In this document: one piece after another, positions 1-21,139 of the stretch
Layout of the letters: each line of letters starts with the position of its first letter
Position numbering within the stretch: the stretch's first letter is position 1
Assembly: GCA_034530615.2 (NCBI GenBank)
Contig: JAVRCV020000048.1
Location: 51,366 to 115,365, forward strand
Origin: Aulosira sp. ZfuVER01
GTDB lineage: Bacteria; Cyanobacteriota; Cyanobacteriia; Cyanobacteriales; Nostocaceae
Direction: 5' to 3'
Length of the DNA: 64,000 nt
The notes under the pieces: generated by a model
Told to the model about the DNA's origin: nothing
Databases searched by the model: none
The model's input: only the letters and a program-made list of their open reading frames with translations
Position numbers and translations under genes: made by a program

Positions 1-321
1 AAAATAAAAACTAGGATGCACCCGTCTTAGGCGACTGAAGCATTGAGTCAAGCTCCTAAAAATAGGTAGAATAGTTGCAAAATTTCAATATATAAAATAG
101 TCACAAGCTACAAATCAATGCCACAGGCGCAATCTGTGCTTTTAGTTTGAGTATTAATGCTCATTAGCAAATATTGTTACTCTCAAATTTCTCCAAAAGC
201 TAAATCTCTTATTGACTTCTCAAGATAGATTTTTTAGGCTGTTCTGCTATCAGGTGCTATTGTTGAAGTCAAGTTTTAGCAACAAAAATACAAACAAATT
301 TTTGCAATTATGAGAATAGTT

Positions 322-339
322 GTTATATTAGTTTACATA
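322..339 (+). promoter_or_regulatory. Putative HLR1 (RpaB) direct-repeat site upstream of hli gene
   Basis: GTTATATT-AG-TTTACATA matches (G/T)TTACA(T/A)(T/A)-N2-(G/T)TTACA(T/A)(T/A) with one mismatch, about 40 bp before an HLIP gene. Confidence 0.6.
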
Positions 340-379
340 AGCTAATAACCCTTAGTAAACTCAGTTTGGAGTGCCAATC

Positions 380-562
380 ATGACAAATGCAACAAAAGTA
401 GTTACTGCTCCTATAGTTGAAGATCGTAACGCTTGGCGCTGGGGCTTCACCCCACAAGCAGAAATTTGGAACGGTCGCTTGGCAATGATCGGCTTTTTAG
501 CAGCAGCTTTAATTGAGCTGTTCTCTGGTAAAGGCTTTCTACACTTTTGGGGTATTCTTTAA
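380..562 (+). CDS. High-light-inducible protein (HLIP/SCP, CAB/ELIP family)
   Basis: [19 protein letters not shown] chlorophyll-binding helix motif; ATG at 380 (in-frame GTG at 371). Confidence 0.93.
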
Positions 563-599
563 TACCAATTTTGAATTTAAGGTTGTTGAGTTACCCTGA

Positions 600-607
600 G
601 CGATCGC
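600..607. repeat. HIP1 octamer GCGATCGC (one example; recurs throughout the window, e.g. 1325, 20718, 21730, 59030)
   Basis: Many exact GCGATCGC copies in coding and intergenic DNA. Confidence 0.95.
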
Positions 608-727
608 TTACAGTACTTGGCAATTTTGAATTGAAAGCTTTTACCATCAGGCTGTTTTCCTAATTTCAAACAACACTACCTATCTGCAATTGGTTTAAGT
701 ATTAAAATACAAAATTAGCTACAAATG

Positions 728-761
728 AAAAACCTGGGTATGTTTTCATACCCAGGTTTTT
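728..761. terminator. Bidirectional intrinsic terminator between convergent hli and sigA
   Basis: AAAAACCTGGGTATG-TTTT-CATACCCAGGTTTTT perfect hairpin with A/T tails on both sides. Confidence 0.8.
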
Positions 762-819
762 ATTCTTTGTTTATTAGTCATTAGCTTGAGACAAATGACT
801 AATAATTACTAACTAATTA

Positions 820-1998
820 CTAACGGATATATTCCTTGAGAACACTGTTACGATTTGGGTGGCGTAACTTGCGGAGTGCTTTTGCCTCAATCTGGCGAAT
901 GCGTTCGCGAGTCACGTTAAAAATCTGGCCAATTTCCTCTAAGGTCTTCATCCGACCATCATCCAAACCGTAGCGCAATCTTAGTACATCTCGTTCGCGG
1001 GGGCTGAGACTGTCGAGGACTTTTTCTAGATCTTCGCGCAACAGATTTTTGGAAACTTGGTCTTCTGGAGTCTCACCATCGGACTCAATAAAATCGCCCA
1101 ATCGAGAATCTTCTTCTTTCCCAATGGGTGTTTCTAAGGAAATAGGCAATTGGGCAGATTTAGCAATAAACCGCAACTTCTCAATTGTCATTTCCATGCG
1201 AGTAGCAATTTCCTCTTCAGTGGGTTTACGACCCATTTCTTGAGAAAGCAGCTTGGTGGTTTTCTTAATCCGAGAGATAGTTTCGTATAAGTGAACTGGA
1301 AGTCGGATAGTGCGGGATTGGTCTGCGATCGCTCTGGTAATTGCTTGACGAATCCACCATGTAGCGTAGGTAGAAAACTTATAACCTTTTTCATGGTCAA
1401 ACTTTTCTGCGGCACGAATCAAGCCAAGACTACCTTCCTGAATTAAATCTTGGAAGGACAAGCCACGATTCATATATTTCTTGGCAATTGAAACTACAAG
1501 GCGCAGGTTTGATTGCACCATTTTATCTTTTGCTCTGCGACCAATATGCAGCTTGTAGCGAAACGCTGACAATGGTAATTGCACAGCTTCTGCCCATTCG
1601 CTATCTTTTGGATCGCGTTCCAACTGTTCGGAAAGCTTTTCCCGTATCCTCTCTAATTCCAGTAATTCAGCAATTTTTCGCGCCAATTCAATTTCTTCGT
1701 CTGCCCGCAACAAACGAATTCGTCCAATTTCTTGCAAGTAAAGGCGAATTGAATCTTCCGTATAGTGCTTTTTCTTGCTTTGTGTCCGACGACGCGATTT
1801 AGCGGCTTTTCCAGACTTTGCGTCGTCCTCATCAGACTGAGGCTCTAAAAACTCATCAATTTCGCCTTCATCGTTTAGTAGTAAGTCTTCATCGACTTCA
1901 TCATCGATTAAGAGTGGGTCTAACTCGAGCTCAGGCTGATTTATCATTTCTAGGTCAGGCTGATATATGCTTTCGAGTACGTTGTTAGCCTGGTTCAT
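820..1998 (-). CDS. sigA: Principal RNA polymerase sigma factor (group 1)
   Basis: Region 1.2 [11 protein letters not shown], region 2 [32 protein letters not shown], region 4 [19 protein letters not shown], acidic N-terminus. Confidence 0.97.
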
Positions 1999-3483
1999 GC
2001 CGCGTTCCTCATGCTCCTTGCAGAATCAATTACTCAAGATGTGTTTACTGCTCTTATTAAACGAGCTAGTTTTGATACCGAAAATATTTTTTTGGCTGGT
2101 TGCCTGAGATATTTTCGGAAATTTTGTCTCTCCTTTGGAGGAGTTTCTTACTAAGTGTGGAAATCGCTGTTGTAGCTGACTTACTCACCTTAGTAAAGGC
2201 TATGCGTATTGTTCTCGCATATTACCTTTAACTGACTTGTCTAAAAAAAGACATGTCTTGAGAAAAAAATTTACCACTACAGTTAAATAAACATAACTGT
2301 TGGTAGATTTTTTCCGTAAAGACTGTTCCGATTGTAGCCTGTTTCACAGAAATTGCACTCTTTTTGTGTGTTAATCTTGTAGTCCTTTAGGCAGGTAAAG
2401 CCACTATTAACAAAAAGAACTTCAAAATGGTAGCCATGCCCTTAAATCTTTTCTGAAACTTTTTAGAATTGCAGTGGCATTGTCATTACATTAAACGGTA
2501 AGTACACCTGTTCATGCACTCTTCTAAGTACAATGCACAACATTAATTACTTAGAAACAGCGCATTTTATATTAACTCAAGCGAGAAGCAATAGCGCACG
2601 TATTTTTACATTTCCTTCATAAAGTACTCAGTTCGTGAAGCTAAAGCGAGAGTTCTCGCTAGGTAGATACAGCAGATATGCTGATGCTTGTCTTGGGGCA
2701 CTCTGCATTATGTACGCTCATTACCTAAACTAAGGAGTTGAGGTAAGGGTAGAATCAGCCTGATAGCAGATCAATTTAGATTCAACTAATTGGTCTTATT
2801 CACACGTTAGCGCACTGTTGCGATTTCAGCCCTATGAAACTTGACAAACTTTTCCTATTGTATACAACGATATTTTAATCAATTCATCAAGGATTTGACA
2901 TTAAAGACGAGCAATTATTTGTCTACTGAAGCTAAAGAATTTAGATGGTAGGTTAGGAACCTAGTTGAAAATCTACTTTAAGTAAAATATTTGTAAATTT
3001 TAATACTCACTAACGTAGTAATTTATTAGCTATATTTTTAACAATTAATTCCCAATTTACTTAGCAAAGCGGGCTAAGTAGATGAGGTTCAGCTTTGCTA
3101 TTCAAGGATAACAAATACATTGCTAGAAAGGAGACAAAATTTACTGGTATTCATCAAGTGTTGTTTTTCACTTGACTTAACTTAAATATCAGATGAAGTT
3201 AACAAACTTGCCAATGTGTAATCACTTAAGCTGAAAGAAAATATTGACAAAAAAAACATTATATGCAGTTGCTAACAGGGAATTAATTTGATGATTTTTG
3301 TAATGAATATTTATATATTTTATTAACCACTTTTTATTGTCTAACTGTGTTGCTGTTTGGGTACGTGCAATACACTCTCTAAAGAGAAAGAGGCTAGTGC
3401 AAGAAGGCAGCATGGGGCATTGGTATTCTTTACGCCCCATGCTTACGTAATCCCACTCCTTCCTGGGGTGGAATGACCTTAAT

Positions 3484-5475
<1,992 letters not shown>

Positions 5476-17097: not shown

Positions 17098-18906
17098 ATG
17101 ACAATAACCCTTCTCAACAATCGCTATCAAGTTATTCAGGTACTCGGTGCTGGTGGTTTTGGCGAAACCTTTCTGGCAGAAGATACTCATATGCCTTCTC
17201 GCCGTCGCTGTGTCATCAAGCAACTCAAACCAATCAGCAATGATCCGCCAACCTACCAGATGATTCAACAGCGGTTTGAAAGAGAAGCCGCAACTTTAGA
17301 GTATTTAGGCAAAAGTAGCGACCAAATCCCGGAACTTTATGCCTACTTTTCTGAAAACGGACAGTTTTACCTCGTTCAAGAATGGATTCACGGACAAACC
17401 TTGAGAGATGTTGTCCAAGCTAAAGGATACGAAAGTGAAACTGTAGTTCGAGAAATTCTCTTAAGTCTATTGCCCGTCTTAGACTATATCCACAGCAAGG
17501 GAATTATTCACCGAGATATCAAGCCTGATAACATCATTCTCCGTTCCCCAGATAGCAAGCCAGTTCTTATTGATTTTGGTGCAGTCAAGGAAACTATCCG
17601 TTCAGTAGTGAGTTCTCCAGGATTACCTGCGCAATCAATGGTAATTGGTACACCTGGGTATATGCCGAGCGAACAAGCTTTAGGACGACCAGTCTATGCC
17701 ACTGACATCTATAGTTTAGGCTTAACAGCGATTTATTTATTAACTGGTAAACAACCGCAAGAACTAGAAACCGACCAGCAAACTGGGGAAATTCTTTGGC
17801 AGGAATATGCTCCTAACATCTCTGTAAGTTTGGCAAAGGTACTAAATCAGGCAATTAAGCCTAATGCTGGCGATCGCTATACTACTGCCAGTAAAATGCT
17901 CTATGCTTTAGAGTCTGCCAGTTATATTGTTCCTCACGCAGTTACCACAGCTACGACAGCTGCTGTCTCAATTCGGCAAACCCAGCCATTATATTCGCCG
18001 CAACCCCAAAAAATTACCTCTAGAAATTGGCAGAAGCCTGCTGTAATTGTCAGCAGTTTAGTAGTAGGTGGATTGATTGGTGGGTTAGTGATTTCTAGCA
18101 TAACCCGCCAACCAGAATCGGCAGCACCTATCGTCAGTAATTCCACCCCTTCACCAGAATCATTAGGTACTAATCCCGAACCTACCGATACCCCAATTTC
18201 TTCCCAACCTTCCCCAAGCGCATCACCCTCGCCTGTGCAAGTAATTCCTGCACCTATTCCTCTTAACCCTAAAGTAGAATCCAATCCTCCAGAGACTACA
18301 ACATCACTGCCAAAGAGAGAGCCTGTAACTTCTGATACTCCTACACCAATCGCAACATTAGCACCACAACCAAAAACCGAAAATCAGCCACCTGTAGTTC
18401 CAACACCAGAAGTCCGTTCAACACCACAGAACAACGACCAGCCTACCAAGTCAGCTAGTATTAGCAGGCAAACCGTTCCGGCATTTCCTACTGGTACACA
18501 AAGAAGCAGCGTGGAAGCTACTCTTGGCAAACCAAGGAAAGATTTAAGAGGCCTGTGGCCCAATACTCGGGCAGTCACTTATAAGGTAGTACCAAACCAA
18601 ATTGACTTAGGTTACTTATTTGATCGTAAAACTGGAGCTTTGCGCCAAACAGAAGCAGCTTTTGCCCAATCGGTAGACCCCCAAGTAATGCAGAGTACTT
18701 TAGATGGAATGTTAGGTGGTCAAGCTACTGAAGAAATTAGACAAGGACTACAACAGATACAACGTCGTCAGTCTGATAATTTCCAGTTTTCCAAAGGTTC
18801 GGTGAAGGGTCAGATTGTCCGTCAAGATTGTGATTTTATTTACATCAGTATTTGGGATGCAGACTTACATGATTTTGTCAGTCCGTCGGCGGCAAAACAG
18901 TGTTAA
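17098..18906 (+). CDS. Hanks-type Ser/Thr protein kinase with TM segment, Pro-rich linker and extracellular domain
   Basis: LGAGGFG, VIKQL, HRDIKPDN, DFG, GTPGYMPSE, DIYSLG; TM VIVSSLVVGGLIGGLVI. Confidence 0.93.
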   Translation: MTITLLNNRYQVIQVLGAGGFGETFLAEDTHMPSRRRCVIKQLKPISNDPPTYQMIQQRFEREAATLEYLGKSSDQIPELYAYFSENGQFYLVQEWIHGQTLRDVVQAKGYESETVVREILLSLLPVLDYIHSKGIIHRDIKPDNIILRSPDSKPVLIDFGAVKETIRSVVSSPGLPAQSMVIGTPGYMPSEQALGRPVYATDIYSLGLTAIYLLTGKQPQELETDQQTGEILWQEYAPNISVSLAKVLNQAIKPNAGDRYTTASKMLYALESASYIVPHAVTTATTAAVSIRQTQPLYSPQPQKITSRNWQKPAVIVSSLVVGGLIGGLVISSITRQPESAAPIVSNSTPSPESLGTNPEPTDTPISSQPSPSASPSPVQVIPAPIPLNPKVESNPPETTTSLPKREPVTSDTPTPIATLAPQPKTENQPPVVPTPEVRSTPQNNDQPTKSASISRQTVPAFPTGTQRSSVEATLGKPRKDLRGLWPNTRAVTYKVVPNQIDLGYLFDRKTGALRQTEAAFAQSVDPQVMQSTLDGMLGGQATEEIRQGLQQIQRRQSDNFQFSKGSVKGQIVRQDCDFIYISIWDADLHDFVSPSAAKQC

Positions 18907-18959
18907 ATCTATGCAGACTTTTTTATGTAGCGACCTGCAAGACCATCTGAACAACTATA

Positions 18960-18981
18960 AGGGCGGGGTTTTCCTGCCCTT
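18960..18981. terminator. Hairpin downstream of kinase (terminator or REP-like)
   Basis: AGGGCGGG-GTTT-TCCTGCCCT followed by TATTT. Confidence 0.45.
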
Positions 18982-19288
18982 ATTTCTAATACCAATTTGA
19001 AAAAAGAATGATTTATTCCAAACGGCAACAGGCTTACTGGCTGACAGTCCAGATTCGTTGCTCATAAGTTTTTTAATAGTGATATGGCTTGCGATAAATA
19101 GTTAATCTATTTAAGCAACAGTTTATACTCAGATTCTTGAAAGCTGTTATAAATTGAACCTTAAATCATAAGGTGCATTAAGCTTTGCCATAACGCACTG
19201 AGATGGATGATGAATTACGGCTACTTTTTACTTTCTCAAACGCTCAATTTGTTACATGGTCGTAACACACGCTACTCCATATCAATAT

Positions 19289-19561
19289 TTCAGGCTCAAA
19301 CGTGCAACTTTGAGGATAAAAGGCGCAATTTCGAGGATAAAAGGCGCAACTTCGAGCCTCAAAGGTTCAACCGTCAGCCTTAAAAGCTCAACTGTCAGCC
19401 TCAGAGGTTCAAGCTTCAGCCTTAAAGGCTCAAGTGTCAGCCTCAAAGGTTCAATCGTCAGCCTCAAAGGCTCAAGTGTCAGCCTCAAAGGTTCAATCGT
19501 CAGCTTCAAAGGCTCAAGTGCTAGCTTCAAAGGCTCAATTGTTAGCCTTTAAGGCTCAAAA
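19289..19561. repeat. Tandem array of 13 x 21-bp units, consensus GTCAGCCTCAAAGG(C/T)TCAA(G/T/C)(T/C)
   Basis: Units aligned by hand at exact 21-bp period without indels; units 8 and 10 identical; units 1-3 most diverged. Confidence 0.95.
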
Positions 19562-19783
19562 ATGGCTTGATGAAGACAATTTGCGCCTACACAAACAAAA
19601 CCCGCCTTATCCCTCTTTTATCACTACGGGGAGAGAATAATACTCTACCCAATCTGAACCTTAGACAAAATCATCAATTGAGCGATCGCATGATCATTTT
19701 CTCATTTAACTTAGCTTGTTGATAAATAACCCAATAATAAGACTTAGGGATTATTCTCTGCTGAAAGTAACAAAAGAGGGCTT

Positions 19784-19886
19784 ATACCATTTCACCAAAA
19801 ATATGATGCAGACGCAAACCCTGGAACCTTTGCTGAGTCTCAATTTCTTAATTTTGAATTTTGAATTTTGAATTTTGAATTGGTAT
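19784..19886. repeat. Small element with ATACCA(T/A)TTC...GAATTGGTAT ends containing (AATTTTG)n STRR
   Basis: ataccatttc at left, gaattggtat at right, four aattttg heptamers inside. Confidence 0.6.
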
Positions 19887-19965
19887 TACCTGGGTTTCAA
19901 AAATCTGTGTTTCAACCACAGGGTAGAGAACAGCAATACTGTGCCCTTACGAAAAATCTATAATT

Positions 19966-20092
19966 TAGGGAACTCCAAGAAATAAATTATGCGACAAGTA
20001 GGGGCAGGGCACCAATAAAATATTGGTATTACCGAAAGTTTGTGGATGTCGTGCCCCTACAATTGAGTTATTTTTTATTTGTTAATCCCTTA
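19966..20092. repeat. MITE-like element carrying a REP-like GTAGGGGCA...TGCCCCTAC core
   Basis: Imperfect terminal IRs TAGGGAACTCCAAGAAATAAA / TTTTTTATTTGTTAATCCCTTA; inner IR 19998-20060. Confidence 0.6.
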
Positions 20093-20192
20093 TCGGGATT
20101 TTGGTGAATTTGTTACACCTGGTTATCCCACCATATTATTTAAATTGCTGGTGCGTTATGGCAGAACACCCAACGCACCATAATTTTCAGTG

Positions 20193-20666
20193 TTAGGTAG
20201 CAGAAGTTTCAGGTTGCTTTTTCTTAGGACGGCGGGTAAACCTGCGTCCCATCTCATCAATGACTGCGTCTAAACCTGTAACATCACCGCTAGCTTTAGC
20301 ATAGTTGTAAATTGCTAATGCTGATGTATATGCTTCACTACCAGCAGCCATACAAGTGTCATCCACTAGTTCTTGCAGTTGCGTCAGCGATAGCAGTACT
20401 GGATACAAGGCTTCATACAGCCCTAAATCCCGCCGCATCTCTTCTAAATCAAAGGAACGGGGTAAAAAATCGGGGTTTTGTGTGCCTACTTCCAAGGCTT
20501 TGCTGACAAAAGCCCGACTTTTATCACCCATTTTGACTATGGTGCGACGGTCTTCGGTTGTTAAATCAACTAAAAACGGTAATTTTTGCCGAATAGTCGC
20601 GATCGCTTTCATCACCTCATCCCGATCTGTTTGGGAAAATTTAGCACTGATATGATTTTCTGCCAT
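20193..20666 (-). CDS. Uncharacterised 157-aa helical protein
   Basis: AAGGAG RBS shortly before ATG 20666; protein-like motifs LPFLVDLT..RR...KMGDKSRAFV..AL...QNP.F.P and DT...GSEAY..AL..Y...K; no known domain recognised. Confidence 0.85.
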   Translation of the reverse strand: MAENHISAKFSQTDRDEVMKAIATIRQKLPFLVDLTTEDRRTIVKMGDKSRAFVSKALEVGTQNPDFLPRSFDLEEMRRDLGLYEALYPVLLSLTQLQELVDDTCMAAGSEAYTSALAIYNYAKASGDVTGLDAVIDEMGRRFTRRPKKKQPETSAT

Positions 20667-20743
20667 TTTTGGCACTCCTTGAGGACACTCAATCTCAGTA
20701 TTCCCAAAGTTAAAAAGGCGATCGCTAAACTCAACTGCATCAA

Positions 20744-21139
20744 TCAGCCTGAAATCACTGCGATACAATCAATTTCCACCAATACATCCTTCGGTAAGCG
20801 CGATACTTCTACACAAGCCCGTGCTGGCGCAGTGTCCTCCGGAAAATATTTGGCATAAATCGTATTTACAACTGCAAAATCATTCATATCAGCAAGAAAT
20901 ACAGTGGTTTTCACCACATCTTTAAAACTTGCACCTGCTGCTGTCAAAATAGCTTCCAAATTAGCCATTACCTGCTCAGTTTGCTTTTTCACATCATCAG
21001 TGTAGACAACCTGACCAATACGGGGATCGATGGCAATTTGTCCAGCCACAAACACCATTTGACCAGAAGCCGCGATCGCTTGATTATATGGACCCACTGG
21101 TTCAGGTGCGTTATCAGTACGAATAACAGTCTTACTCAT
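20744..21139 (-). CDS. ridA: RidA/YjgF family enamine/imine deaminase
   Basis: [53 protein letters not shown]. Confidence 0.92.

Follow-up and report, generated by a model that had tools for sequence, protein, structure and literature searches.

Two neighboring elements in the genome of the cyanobacterium Aulosira sp. ZfuVER01 raise the question of whether a small orphan gene and a tandem array of 21-bp units belong together and, if they do, to what end. They lie in a 64,000-nucleotide stretch of DNA, called here the window, in which the gene, encoding a 157-amino-acid protein, has a kinase gene and ridA as its neighbors; among relatives the neighbors vary. A sequence-only reading of the window had proposed that gene and array may form a two-part unit, the protein binding the repeats as RNA or DNA or else partnering a heptad peptide encoded by them, loosely in the manner of a type III toxin-antitoxin pair. 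The features of the locus are collected in Table 1.

Table 1. Features of the gene-array locus, in window coordinates. G000 is the window's genome and G008 its closest relative.
Feature	Position	Strand	Remarks
Array of 13 x 21 bp, family F4 of G000	19288-19560	minus	Imperfect dyad units; polar, with 3' units diverging
Later insertions: multi-copy MITE-like elements and a heptamer repeat (19850-19881)	19609-19889		Not part of the module; absent in G008, multi-copy in G000
REP-like palindromic dispersed repeat in the gap	19999-20062		Not part of the module; 6 genome matches over about 20000-20060
Family A gene	20193-20666	minus	157-aa all-helical protein, predicted antiparallel homodimer, basic C-terminal tail
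Ribosome-binding site AAGGAG	20675-20680	minus	Upstream of the 157-aa gene
J-box GGGAATACT, SigJ extended -10 promoter element	20697-20705	minus	30 nt before the ATG

The array is present as the sequence-only reading described it, with 13 units in register and no indels. Between 13 and 20 of the 21 bases of each unit correspond to the consensus, and dyad symmetry is detectable (p = 0.017). Once heptamer-derived repeats are excluded it is the only 21-, 42- or 63-bp array in the window, as had been claimed, but this uniqueness is local, as five further arrays of the same sequence family, F4, lie elsewhere in the genome, away from any gene of the families described below. Gene and array are separated by 634 bp, in agreement with the earlier estimate of about 630 bp, yet this spacing is atypical; in relatives the first array begins 36-485 nt past the stop codon, and the gap in the window is inflated because it includes multi-copy elements missing from the closest relative (Table 1). 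A search of positions 18900-20800 against Rfam gave no match.

The earlier description of the gene also stands. Its coordinates and its strong AAGGAG ribosome-binding site are as reported, and searches with the protein against Pfam, NCBIfam and PHROG found no family; the sole match in PADLOC covers 33 residues, with E = 0.0095. We refer to the protein and its relatives as family A. The relatives number 997 at 90% clustering among 1024 candidates, almost all of them named hypothetical, and at 50% identity the family comprises 2635 clusters. Some records carry the automatic name 'methyl-accepting chemotaxis protein', for which Pfam gives no support. No homolog was found in a phage collection, nor by a pattern search of viral contigs, and a plasmid search returned one, on a Thiodictyon plasmid, without an array at the thresholds used.

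Linkage between the gene and the array was analyzed in 80 named loci, dominated by Nostocales, of which 69 have 1 kb of sequence on both sides. A 21-, 42- or 63-bp array lies within 1 kb downstream of the family A gene in 66 of these 69 loci and upstream in none, compared with a background of 71 out of 4352 long ORFs of the window's genome with an array within 1 kb. The enrichment of period-21 arrays next to homologs is thus borne out, and it is confined to one side. Because the Nostocales loci are kin, we added more distant loci, which supplied 72 different proteins and came from metagenome contigs and, in one case, a plasmid. Where there was sufficient flank an array is located downstream in 31 of 50 loci and upstream in 0 of 63, with no array detected downstream at the thresholds used in the other 19. 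Among proteins of this sample that are less than 60% identical the corresponding numbers are 13 of 22 and 0 of 30. When the metagenome loci were pooled, the autocorrelation at lag 21 was 0.43 downstream versus 0.28 upstream, and peaks at lags 21, 42 and 63 were present in the downstream flank only. Judged by cluster name the carriers include Planktothrix agardhii, Pyrinomonadaceae (Acidobacteria) and Cloacimonadota, with others on contigs of 30-37% GC, and the gene-array link is seen beside the Acidobacteria-, Cloacimonadota- and Planktothrix-named relatives too. Some of the arrays begin at the very stop codon of the gene. An association of gene and array that extends over several phyla is thus strongly supported.

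The window's genome (G000, 8.03 Mb) contains many more arrays. There are 69 with a period of 21, 42 or 63, which fall into 10 multi-member sequence families; this census left aside 15 singleton arrays, about half of them inside genes. An extra family has four members with a period of 20, making a total of about 73 arrays in 11 families, or about nine per Mb, of which about 60 are solo. Family A is represented by four full-length genes, one of them interrupted by a stop, and all four are followed by an array; these arrays are of three different families. Reading the neighbors of the remaining arrays revealed a second protein family, B, which is unnamed, helical and 120-140 amino acids in length. 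G000 has 12 full-length copies, 11 of which have an array upstream and none downstream; in other genomes the array is upstream in 20 of 27 cases and downstream in 1 of 27. The distance from the end of these B-linked arrays to the start codon is about 150-470 nt, and they lie upstream of the B promoter. All matches of family B in Pfam and NCBIfam searches were under the cut-off. Every one of the 11 multi-member array families has at least one member beside an A or a B gene, and the genome also holds one fragment of family A and five of family B. The two families are not combined in an A-array-B cassette, there being no B gene in the A loci examined and no A gene in the B loci examined. The proposed two-part unit is therefore right about the link between gene and array, but the unit is not a closed one, given the many solo arrays and the second protein family.

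In one set of 301 cyanobacterial genomes family A is found in 23, family B in 21 and both in 19. Within the Nostocaceae-level family f1, B is present in 14 of 15 A-positive genomes versus 0 of 22 A-negative ones, these genomes being kin and not independent. Arrays were matched in the 301 genomes with two candidates scored per genome, giving F4 in 10 and F0 in 12, and every one of these genomes is A-positive. The sequence-only reading had named the occurrence of the same array independently of the gene as evidence against a link. Arrays of family F4 do lie away from the gene, yet they are found only in genomes that carry family A, indicating that the system is wider than one locus and leaving the link intact. 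The pairing has an exception in G031 and G015, which carry F4-like arrays while their sole A gene belongs to the other clade, and within the clade of the window gene the array unit differs among proteins less than 0.2 changes per site apart. On a quick protein tree the array labels cluster, with 15 changes versus 58 when shuffled, the F0 or F4 label being ambiguous for one intermediate unit; given the kinship of the carriers and the ambiguous label, we do not use this clustering as evidence of coevolution.

We traced six solo-array sites in five relatives, whose genomes are only 80-92% identical. At three of the six an array of the same family is kept in all relatives with both flanks (3/3, 5/5 and 5/5), while the units turn over in order and in number (about 2-20). 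At the remaining sites the array is kept in two of the five relatives, and elsewhere it is absent at a synteny break or swapped for a different family, the swaps being found at two sites, in G009 and G003. In none of the five relatives did any of the six sites prove to be cleanly empty, with its flanks joined. At the window locus itself, the gene and array of G008 are 14.4 kb apart. Among 13 further relatives, an F4 array lies by ridA in G003 and G013, where the gene is missing, and a related array is in that place in G001 and G011; nine have neither.

The promoters provide a connection to development. Of 120 cyanobacterial A genes, 82 carry the J-box sequence GGGAATACT exactly, in almost every case 30-31 nt ahead of the start codon. 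Its frequency is 16 in 3363 background ORFs, 0 in 39 B genes and 8 in 72 metagenome A genes. Homologs outside the cyanobacteria mostly lack the J-box, and there are no hormogonia there, the hormogonium being a motile, plant-infecting stage whose cells become smaller by division. Proximity to J-boxes is no more frequent among the arrays than by chance, with 4 of 69 compared to a random mean of 2.5. In the promoter lists for Nostoc punctiforme the J-box (GGGaAtacT) is the promoter element of SigJ (PMC6495340). In its last 46 bases the promoter listed for Npun_R5806 agrees at every position with the sequence upstream of A genes from Nostoc that share a clade with the window gene, and the promoters of Npun_R1178 and Npun_F0425 are similar to the two remaining A types; all three genes are hypothetical proteins of the sigJ regulon (PMC6495340). 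Expression of Npun_R5806 rises from 45 to 3604 at 12 h, against 21-27 without sigJ (PMC6495340, Data Sets S1 and S2), and from 0 to 12 h Npun_R1178 goes from 29 to 2098 and Npun_F0425 from 44 to 1072, both remaining approximately flat without sigJ (PMC6495340). Four further listed promoters, of Npun_R4620, Npun_F2654, Npun_R1246 and Npun_F1224, resemble sequences upstream of B genes, and the source places these hypothetical proteins in one sigC cluster (PMC6495340). Their expression increases from 10 to 2002, 27 to 5042, 4 to 344 and 7 to 2063, respectively, with induction lost on removal of either sigC or sigJ (PMC6495340). According to the same source SigC is dominant in reductive cell division (PMC6495340). 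Npun rows that were matched by the same short words but are unlike the A or B promoters were left out. The Nostoc punctiforme genes with A-type (SigJ) and B-type (SigC) promoters, which are up 24- to 295-fold in hormogonia, are likely counterparts of A and B, an assignment made by the likeness of the promoters and not by protein sequence, and strongest for Npun_R5806 and Npun_R4620. The sequence-only reading had noticed neither family B nor the J-box.

The proteins of both families are predicted to be helical throughout. The model of family A (pLDDT 95) comprises helices at residues 12-28, 37-42, 48-63, 74-126 and 133-143, with no strand, and that of family B (pLDDT 86) has helices at 9-24, 36-89 and 94-98. 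The helix layout of B resembles that of the last three helices of A. A profile comparison of the two (hhalign) gave a probability of about 1%, so the common layout is an observation, and homology is unsupported. Family A is predicted to form a homodimer with an ipSAE of 0.80, the best of three controls scoring 0.00; the runs agree in at least 84% of contacts, with pLDDT of at least 80, and in a benchmark 20 of 30 known pairs attained this mark, as did 1 of 23 single chains. The chains of the predicted dimer are intertwined, with the long helices lying antiparallel about a two-fold axis at residue 98 of the 53-residue helix, and with residues 112-119 of one chain packed on helix 48-63 of the other. 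Family A proteins are on the whole slightly acidic, with a mean net charge of -2.1; their basic columns are confined to about residues 40-49 and 141-148, and the geometry of the predicted dimer would gather these conserved residues at the two ends of a rod. Estimated from 1.5 Å per residue, without coordinates, the ends may be 60-80 Å apart, compared with 71 Å for 21 bp. Family B is basic (+5.6), with basic ends. A sequence search of solved structures with A gave a designed bundle as the best match (E = 0.0018), and fold searches with A and B gave no significant match, only generic helical hairpins (best VIA Z 5.9 for A and 6.8 for B). Novelty of fold does not follow from such generic hits. 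No known DNA-binding, nuclease, transposase or reverse transcriptase fold or domain was found in fold and domain searches with either protein.

All the array periods are 20-22 bp or sums thereof, including 22 and 43 beside A genes (at loci L232 and L212) and 20 and 62 beside B genes. Two turns of B-DNA correspond to 20-22 bp. Variation between units takes the form of substitutions scattered across all 21 bases, with no alternation of repeat and spacer. Dyad symmetry reaches p < 0.05 in 29 of 68 arrays of G000, in 19 of 33 metagenome arrays and in 19 of 31 linked arrays (a sample of every third array), kin arrays within these counts not being independent; the dyads are imperfect, and more than half of the solo arrays miss this level. 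Twelve dissimilar families of A-linked units have in common a weak dyad scaffold, approximately GAA-n-YTY-n-RAR-n-TTC, with an information content of 7.3 bits versus 5.6 ± 0.35 in 30 permutations, where the maximum was 6.65.

We propose that the arrays are phased docking sites in double-stranded DNA for developmentally staged dimers of A and B, a reading to which we give an even chance. Each array would be a non-coding row of imperfect dyad sites, one for every two helical turns, and all the sites would thus be presented on the same face of the helix. Family A would form an elongated antiparallel homodimer with its basic ends about 70 Å apart, roughly one repeat unit, and these dimers may polymerize or dock along the gene-adjacent array and along the solo copies in the chromosome. 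Family B would act likewise on its own array families. In hormogonium development of Nostoc, A would be switched on by SigJ and B by SigC, in two waves, and the system may organize, compact or mark the chromosome, or tune the genes adjacent to arrays, as the cells shrink by division and become motile. From the staging by SigJ and SigC a role on the chromosome or on neighboring genes would seem the most likely. That A and B bind the arrays, that they do so as double-stranded DNA, that the lengths match, and the role in the cell, are all matters that we infer. A more ambitious version, in our estimation rather doubtful, has about 16 paralogous rod dimers (A and B together), each with its own array family, folding or tethering the Nostoc chromosome at about 70 loci in SigJ and SigC waves; just as doubtful is its corollary that other phyla would have simpler versions, with one gene and one array.

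Might the arrays be read out as peptide or as RNA instead? On the gene strand the window array does read (L/I/V)EPL(R/K)LT, as the sequence-only reading noted, in a frame that is open over 12 units with conservative-looking changes, but its first unit contains a stop, and a start codon is lacking. A sense frame is open in 79 of 93 A-linked arrays and an antisense frame in 82 of 93, and while an in-frame ATG lies within 150 nt in 7 of 26 B-linked arrays, none of 152 arrays has an open frame together with an ATG and a ribosome site. Variation shows no codon-phase excess in any of the eight families tested (p = 0.24-0.95), a per-array test of synonymous excess put no frame consistently ahead in 109 arrays, and some arrays have stops in all six frames. 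The non-triplet periods (20, 22, 43 and 62), the lack of starts with a ribosome site and the absence of a codon-phase signal argue against a variable heptad peptide partnering the protein, and we regard this as very improbable. The arrays could act as RNA, as a 3' extension or a separate transcript, folded through its dyads and coated or processed with the proteins to serve as a scaffold, sponge or stability element while cells differentiate. This would suit the A-linked arrays, which are always downstream in a fixed orientation and sometimes start from the stop codon, as well as the basic tails, which are as appropriate for RNA as for DNA. The window array folds more stably than shuffled sequences on both strands (z = -6.8 and -5.6), and one Planktothrix-type unit can be read as a short stem with a TTCG loop at its end. 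However, any tandem row of dyads folds well on either strand, a hairpin needs no period of 20-22 nt, and the distance between gene and array extends up to the 14.4 kb found in G008. The 63 classifiable solo arrays are placed in tandem gaps (40), between divergent genes (12) and between convergent genes (11), close to the background mix, and those in tandem gaps occur in both orientations (11 sense and 4 antisense). The B-linked arrays upstream of their promoter and the 12 arrays between divergent genes fit DNA better than mRNA. Contigs from four freshwater metatranscriptome runs covered all 30 bins of the Planktothrix-type locus L212, the gene, array and flanks alike; the greater summed depth in the array bin arises from repeated words, so that we draw no conclusion on transcription at this locus. 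A function as RNA is in our view unlikely, and we favor the arrays acting as DNA rather than as RNA or peptide.

Other explanations concern the origin of the arrays. They might belong to a selfish or domesticated system in which every protein would maintain and propagate a repeat family of its own, with the solo arrays as non-autonomous insertions of little function for the host. In RAYT-REPIN systems a dispersed repeat family has a cluster beside its cognate single-copy gene, as described by Bertels and Rainey 2011 (PMC3116915), and here too one gene lies beside one member of each dispersed family (11 of 11 in G000), there are several such pairs per genome, and the units are palindromic. Arrays are found only in genomes with the proteins, are often at synteny breaks and were exchanged for another family at the two sites in G009 and G003. 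Yet RAYTs are HUH (Y1) tyrosine transposases, whereas the models of A and B consist of helices, and searches with them found neither a catalytic domain nor any fold or domain of a nuclease, transposase or reverse transcriptase; REPINs are inverted doublets, whereas these are head-to-tail arrays of 20-22 bp, mostly stable in position across species, with retention at three of six sites and no clean empty site. Tight control by SigJ and SigC also points to a role in the host. We rate a RAYT-like origin a little less probable than a function as RNA. Alternatively the solo arrays could be relics of duplicated cassettes that are now gene-less, with only the gene-adjacent array mattering, in autoregulation. 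The arrays by ridA that have no gene (F4 in G003 and G013, a related one in G001 and G011) and the broken A and B copies in G000 would be expected from this, but the gene fragments number just one for A and five for B beside about 60 solo arrays, and these arrays remain homogeneous and keep their positions in genomes with no more than 80-92% identity. We consider relics improbable. Lowest in our ranking, and hardly probable at all, is a type III-like toxin-antitoxin or phage-defense pair. Type III pairs likewise set a small gene beside a short tandem array, and the distribution of family A is patchy (23 of 301 genomes). In type III systems, though, the array is upstream of the toxin in one operon, with units of about 34-57 nt, whereas here it is downstream in 66 of 69 loci with a period of 21. 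No match of the ToxN, CptN or TenpN type was found, and no match to a toxin in PADLOC, Pfam or fold searches; genes without an array and arrays without a gene are both common, and neither the phage collection nor the viral contigs contain a homolog. The analogy made by the sequence-only reading is weak, in view of fold searches that found no nuclease, the dozens of solo arrays and the developmental promoter.

Docking of A and B dimers on phased sites in DNA, the reading we prefer, can be compared with several known systems. Helically phased tandem sites lie beside the gene of a small dimer in R1 parC/ParR, in pSM19035 omega and in the P1, F and RK2 iterons. The present arrays are likewise phased (20-22 bp and multiples) and lie beside the gene of a small predicted dimer. 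They differ in that there is no ribbon-helix-helix or winged-helix match and no nearby partner NTPase or origin at the window locus (the check for a partition NTPase or initiator covered the neighbors in the window and in relatives), and in that they are chromosomal, with about 70 arrays in 11 families per genome and developmental promoters. MatP/matS, SlmA/SBS, Noc/NBS and ParB/parS operate on single sites, with one protein and one class of site per genome. In common with these we have a small elongated dimer (predicted here), dyad sites that are numerous and dispersed and, possibly, a connection with cell division; by contrast the sites form 10-unit tandem arrays, and no sequence or fold match was found. 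Elhai et al. are said to have described in 2008 the STRR heptamers of cyanobacteria, with a 7-bp period, and SDRs, single inserts of 21-27 nt. The arrays are similar to STRRs and SDRs as short dispersed repeats abundant in the intergenic DNA of Nostocales, but STRRs lack a cognate gene, and a 7-bp sub-period like theirs is significant in just 10 of 68 solo arrays. CRISPR, TIGR-Tas and VIPR systems, like the type III pairs, set a tandem array beside a dedicated protein gene; ours lacks repeat-spacer alternation and any known effector fold, and has a period of 20-22 in place of 60-79, 18 or 5 nt. An atlas of periodic intergenic elements gives periods of 60-79, 18, 5, 10, 8 and 7 nt, and its main text makes no mention of 21-nt or cyanobacterial arrays (bioRxiv 10.64898/2026.10.21.760802). 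A literature search, with limited coverage of subscription papers, gave no description of the A and B proteins or of the arrays. Outside RNA-guided, partition and RAYT-REPIN systems we know of no dispersed satellite-like arrays with dedicated cognate proteins in bacteria. The protein-array system is real and apparently undescribed.

The system is broader than the sequence-only reading saw, with two unnamed protein families of thousands of members tied to satellite-like arrays, and the link to developmental promoters makes it testable in a model strain. Few hypothetical genes are induced as strongly in hormogonium development as the probable N. punctiforme members, as judged by their promoters. 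Seven loci are now named in this genetically tractable strain, each with a candidate target sequence, so that the fate of the chromosome during hormogonium differentiation becomes directly testable. If many paralogous dimers do fold the chromosome through their own array families, this would be a developmentally staged system of chromosome architecture in bacteria that is based on satellite DNA. Orthogonal protein-array pairs at a fixed pitch of 21 bp would also be of use as DNA scaffolds.

Family B, the second family of helical proteins, is marked by a basic N-terminal start together with a YGKxSxEYxxAGG motif, and each of its genes has its own array upstream. Two types of promoter motif recur 5' of these genes, CTGAACC..GGCAAGCTAG and ACGTATGACAAC..GTCCACTATAG, the first of which is probably linked to SigC. 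In the promoter of the window's family A gene a HIP1 octamer (GCGATCGC) lies at 20716-20723, a little 5' of the SigJ element (J-box), and it is similarly placed in many Nostoc family A promoters. Arrays also occur with other periods, those of the Planktothrix type having periods of 43 (21+22) and 22 (L212, L232).

Family B genes, the 20-bp-period array family and Planktothrix-type arrays (G000, the Aulosira genome; C, its contigs; L, compared loci)
Feature	Location	Remark
Family B genes	G000:C66:64355-64780 and 16 other places (L309-L320)	unnamed helical proteins, 120-140 aa
20-bp-period array family, four members	G000:C32:36860-37054; C18; C34; C73	one copy 5' of a family B gene
Planktothrix-type arrays	L212:1178-1400; L232:1566-1700	begin right at the stop codon

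A fragment of a family A gene (residues 81-115; G000:C79:85744-86165) lies a little 3' of an array of the dispersed family F5, a B-type array family, so that the usual order is inverted. At L220, L222 and L211 an array lies between tandem family A genes.

Two relatives (G009 at L293, G003 at L280) carry an array of another 21-bp family at the position that holds an F1 or F5 array in G000. In the closest relative, G008, gene and array are separated by a 14.4-kb block of ordinary genes (L126:2067-16428), with the break falling within repeats of the gene-array gap.

The neighboring ridA is free-standing in G000, G006, G008 and G009, and in most same-genus relatives forms part of an ORF of 350-436 aa, in which a pentapeptide-repeat-like domain is joined in frame to its N-terminal side (L123, L127-L132, L134-L136). 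Several G000 arrays adjoin similar genes of ~200 aa (C19:113103, C8:143203, C15:120795, C34:49101, C46:4547), presumably resembling Uma2-family proteins; this proximity may arise from common insertion-prone regions.
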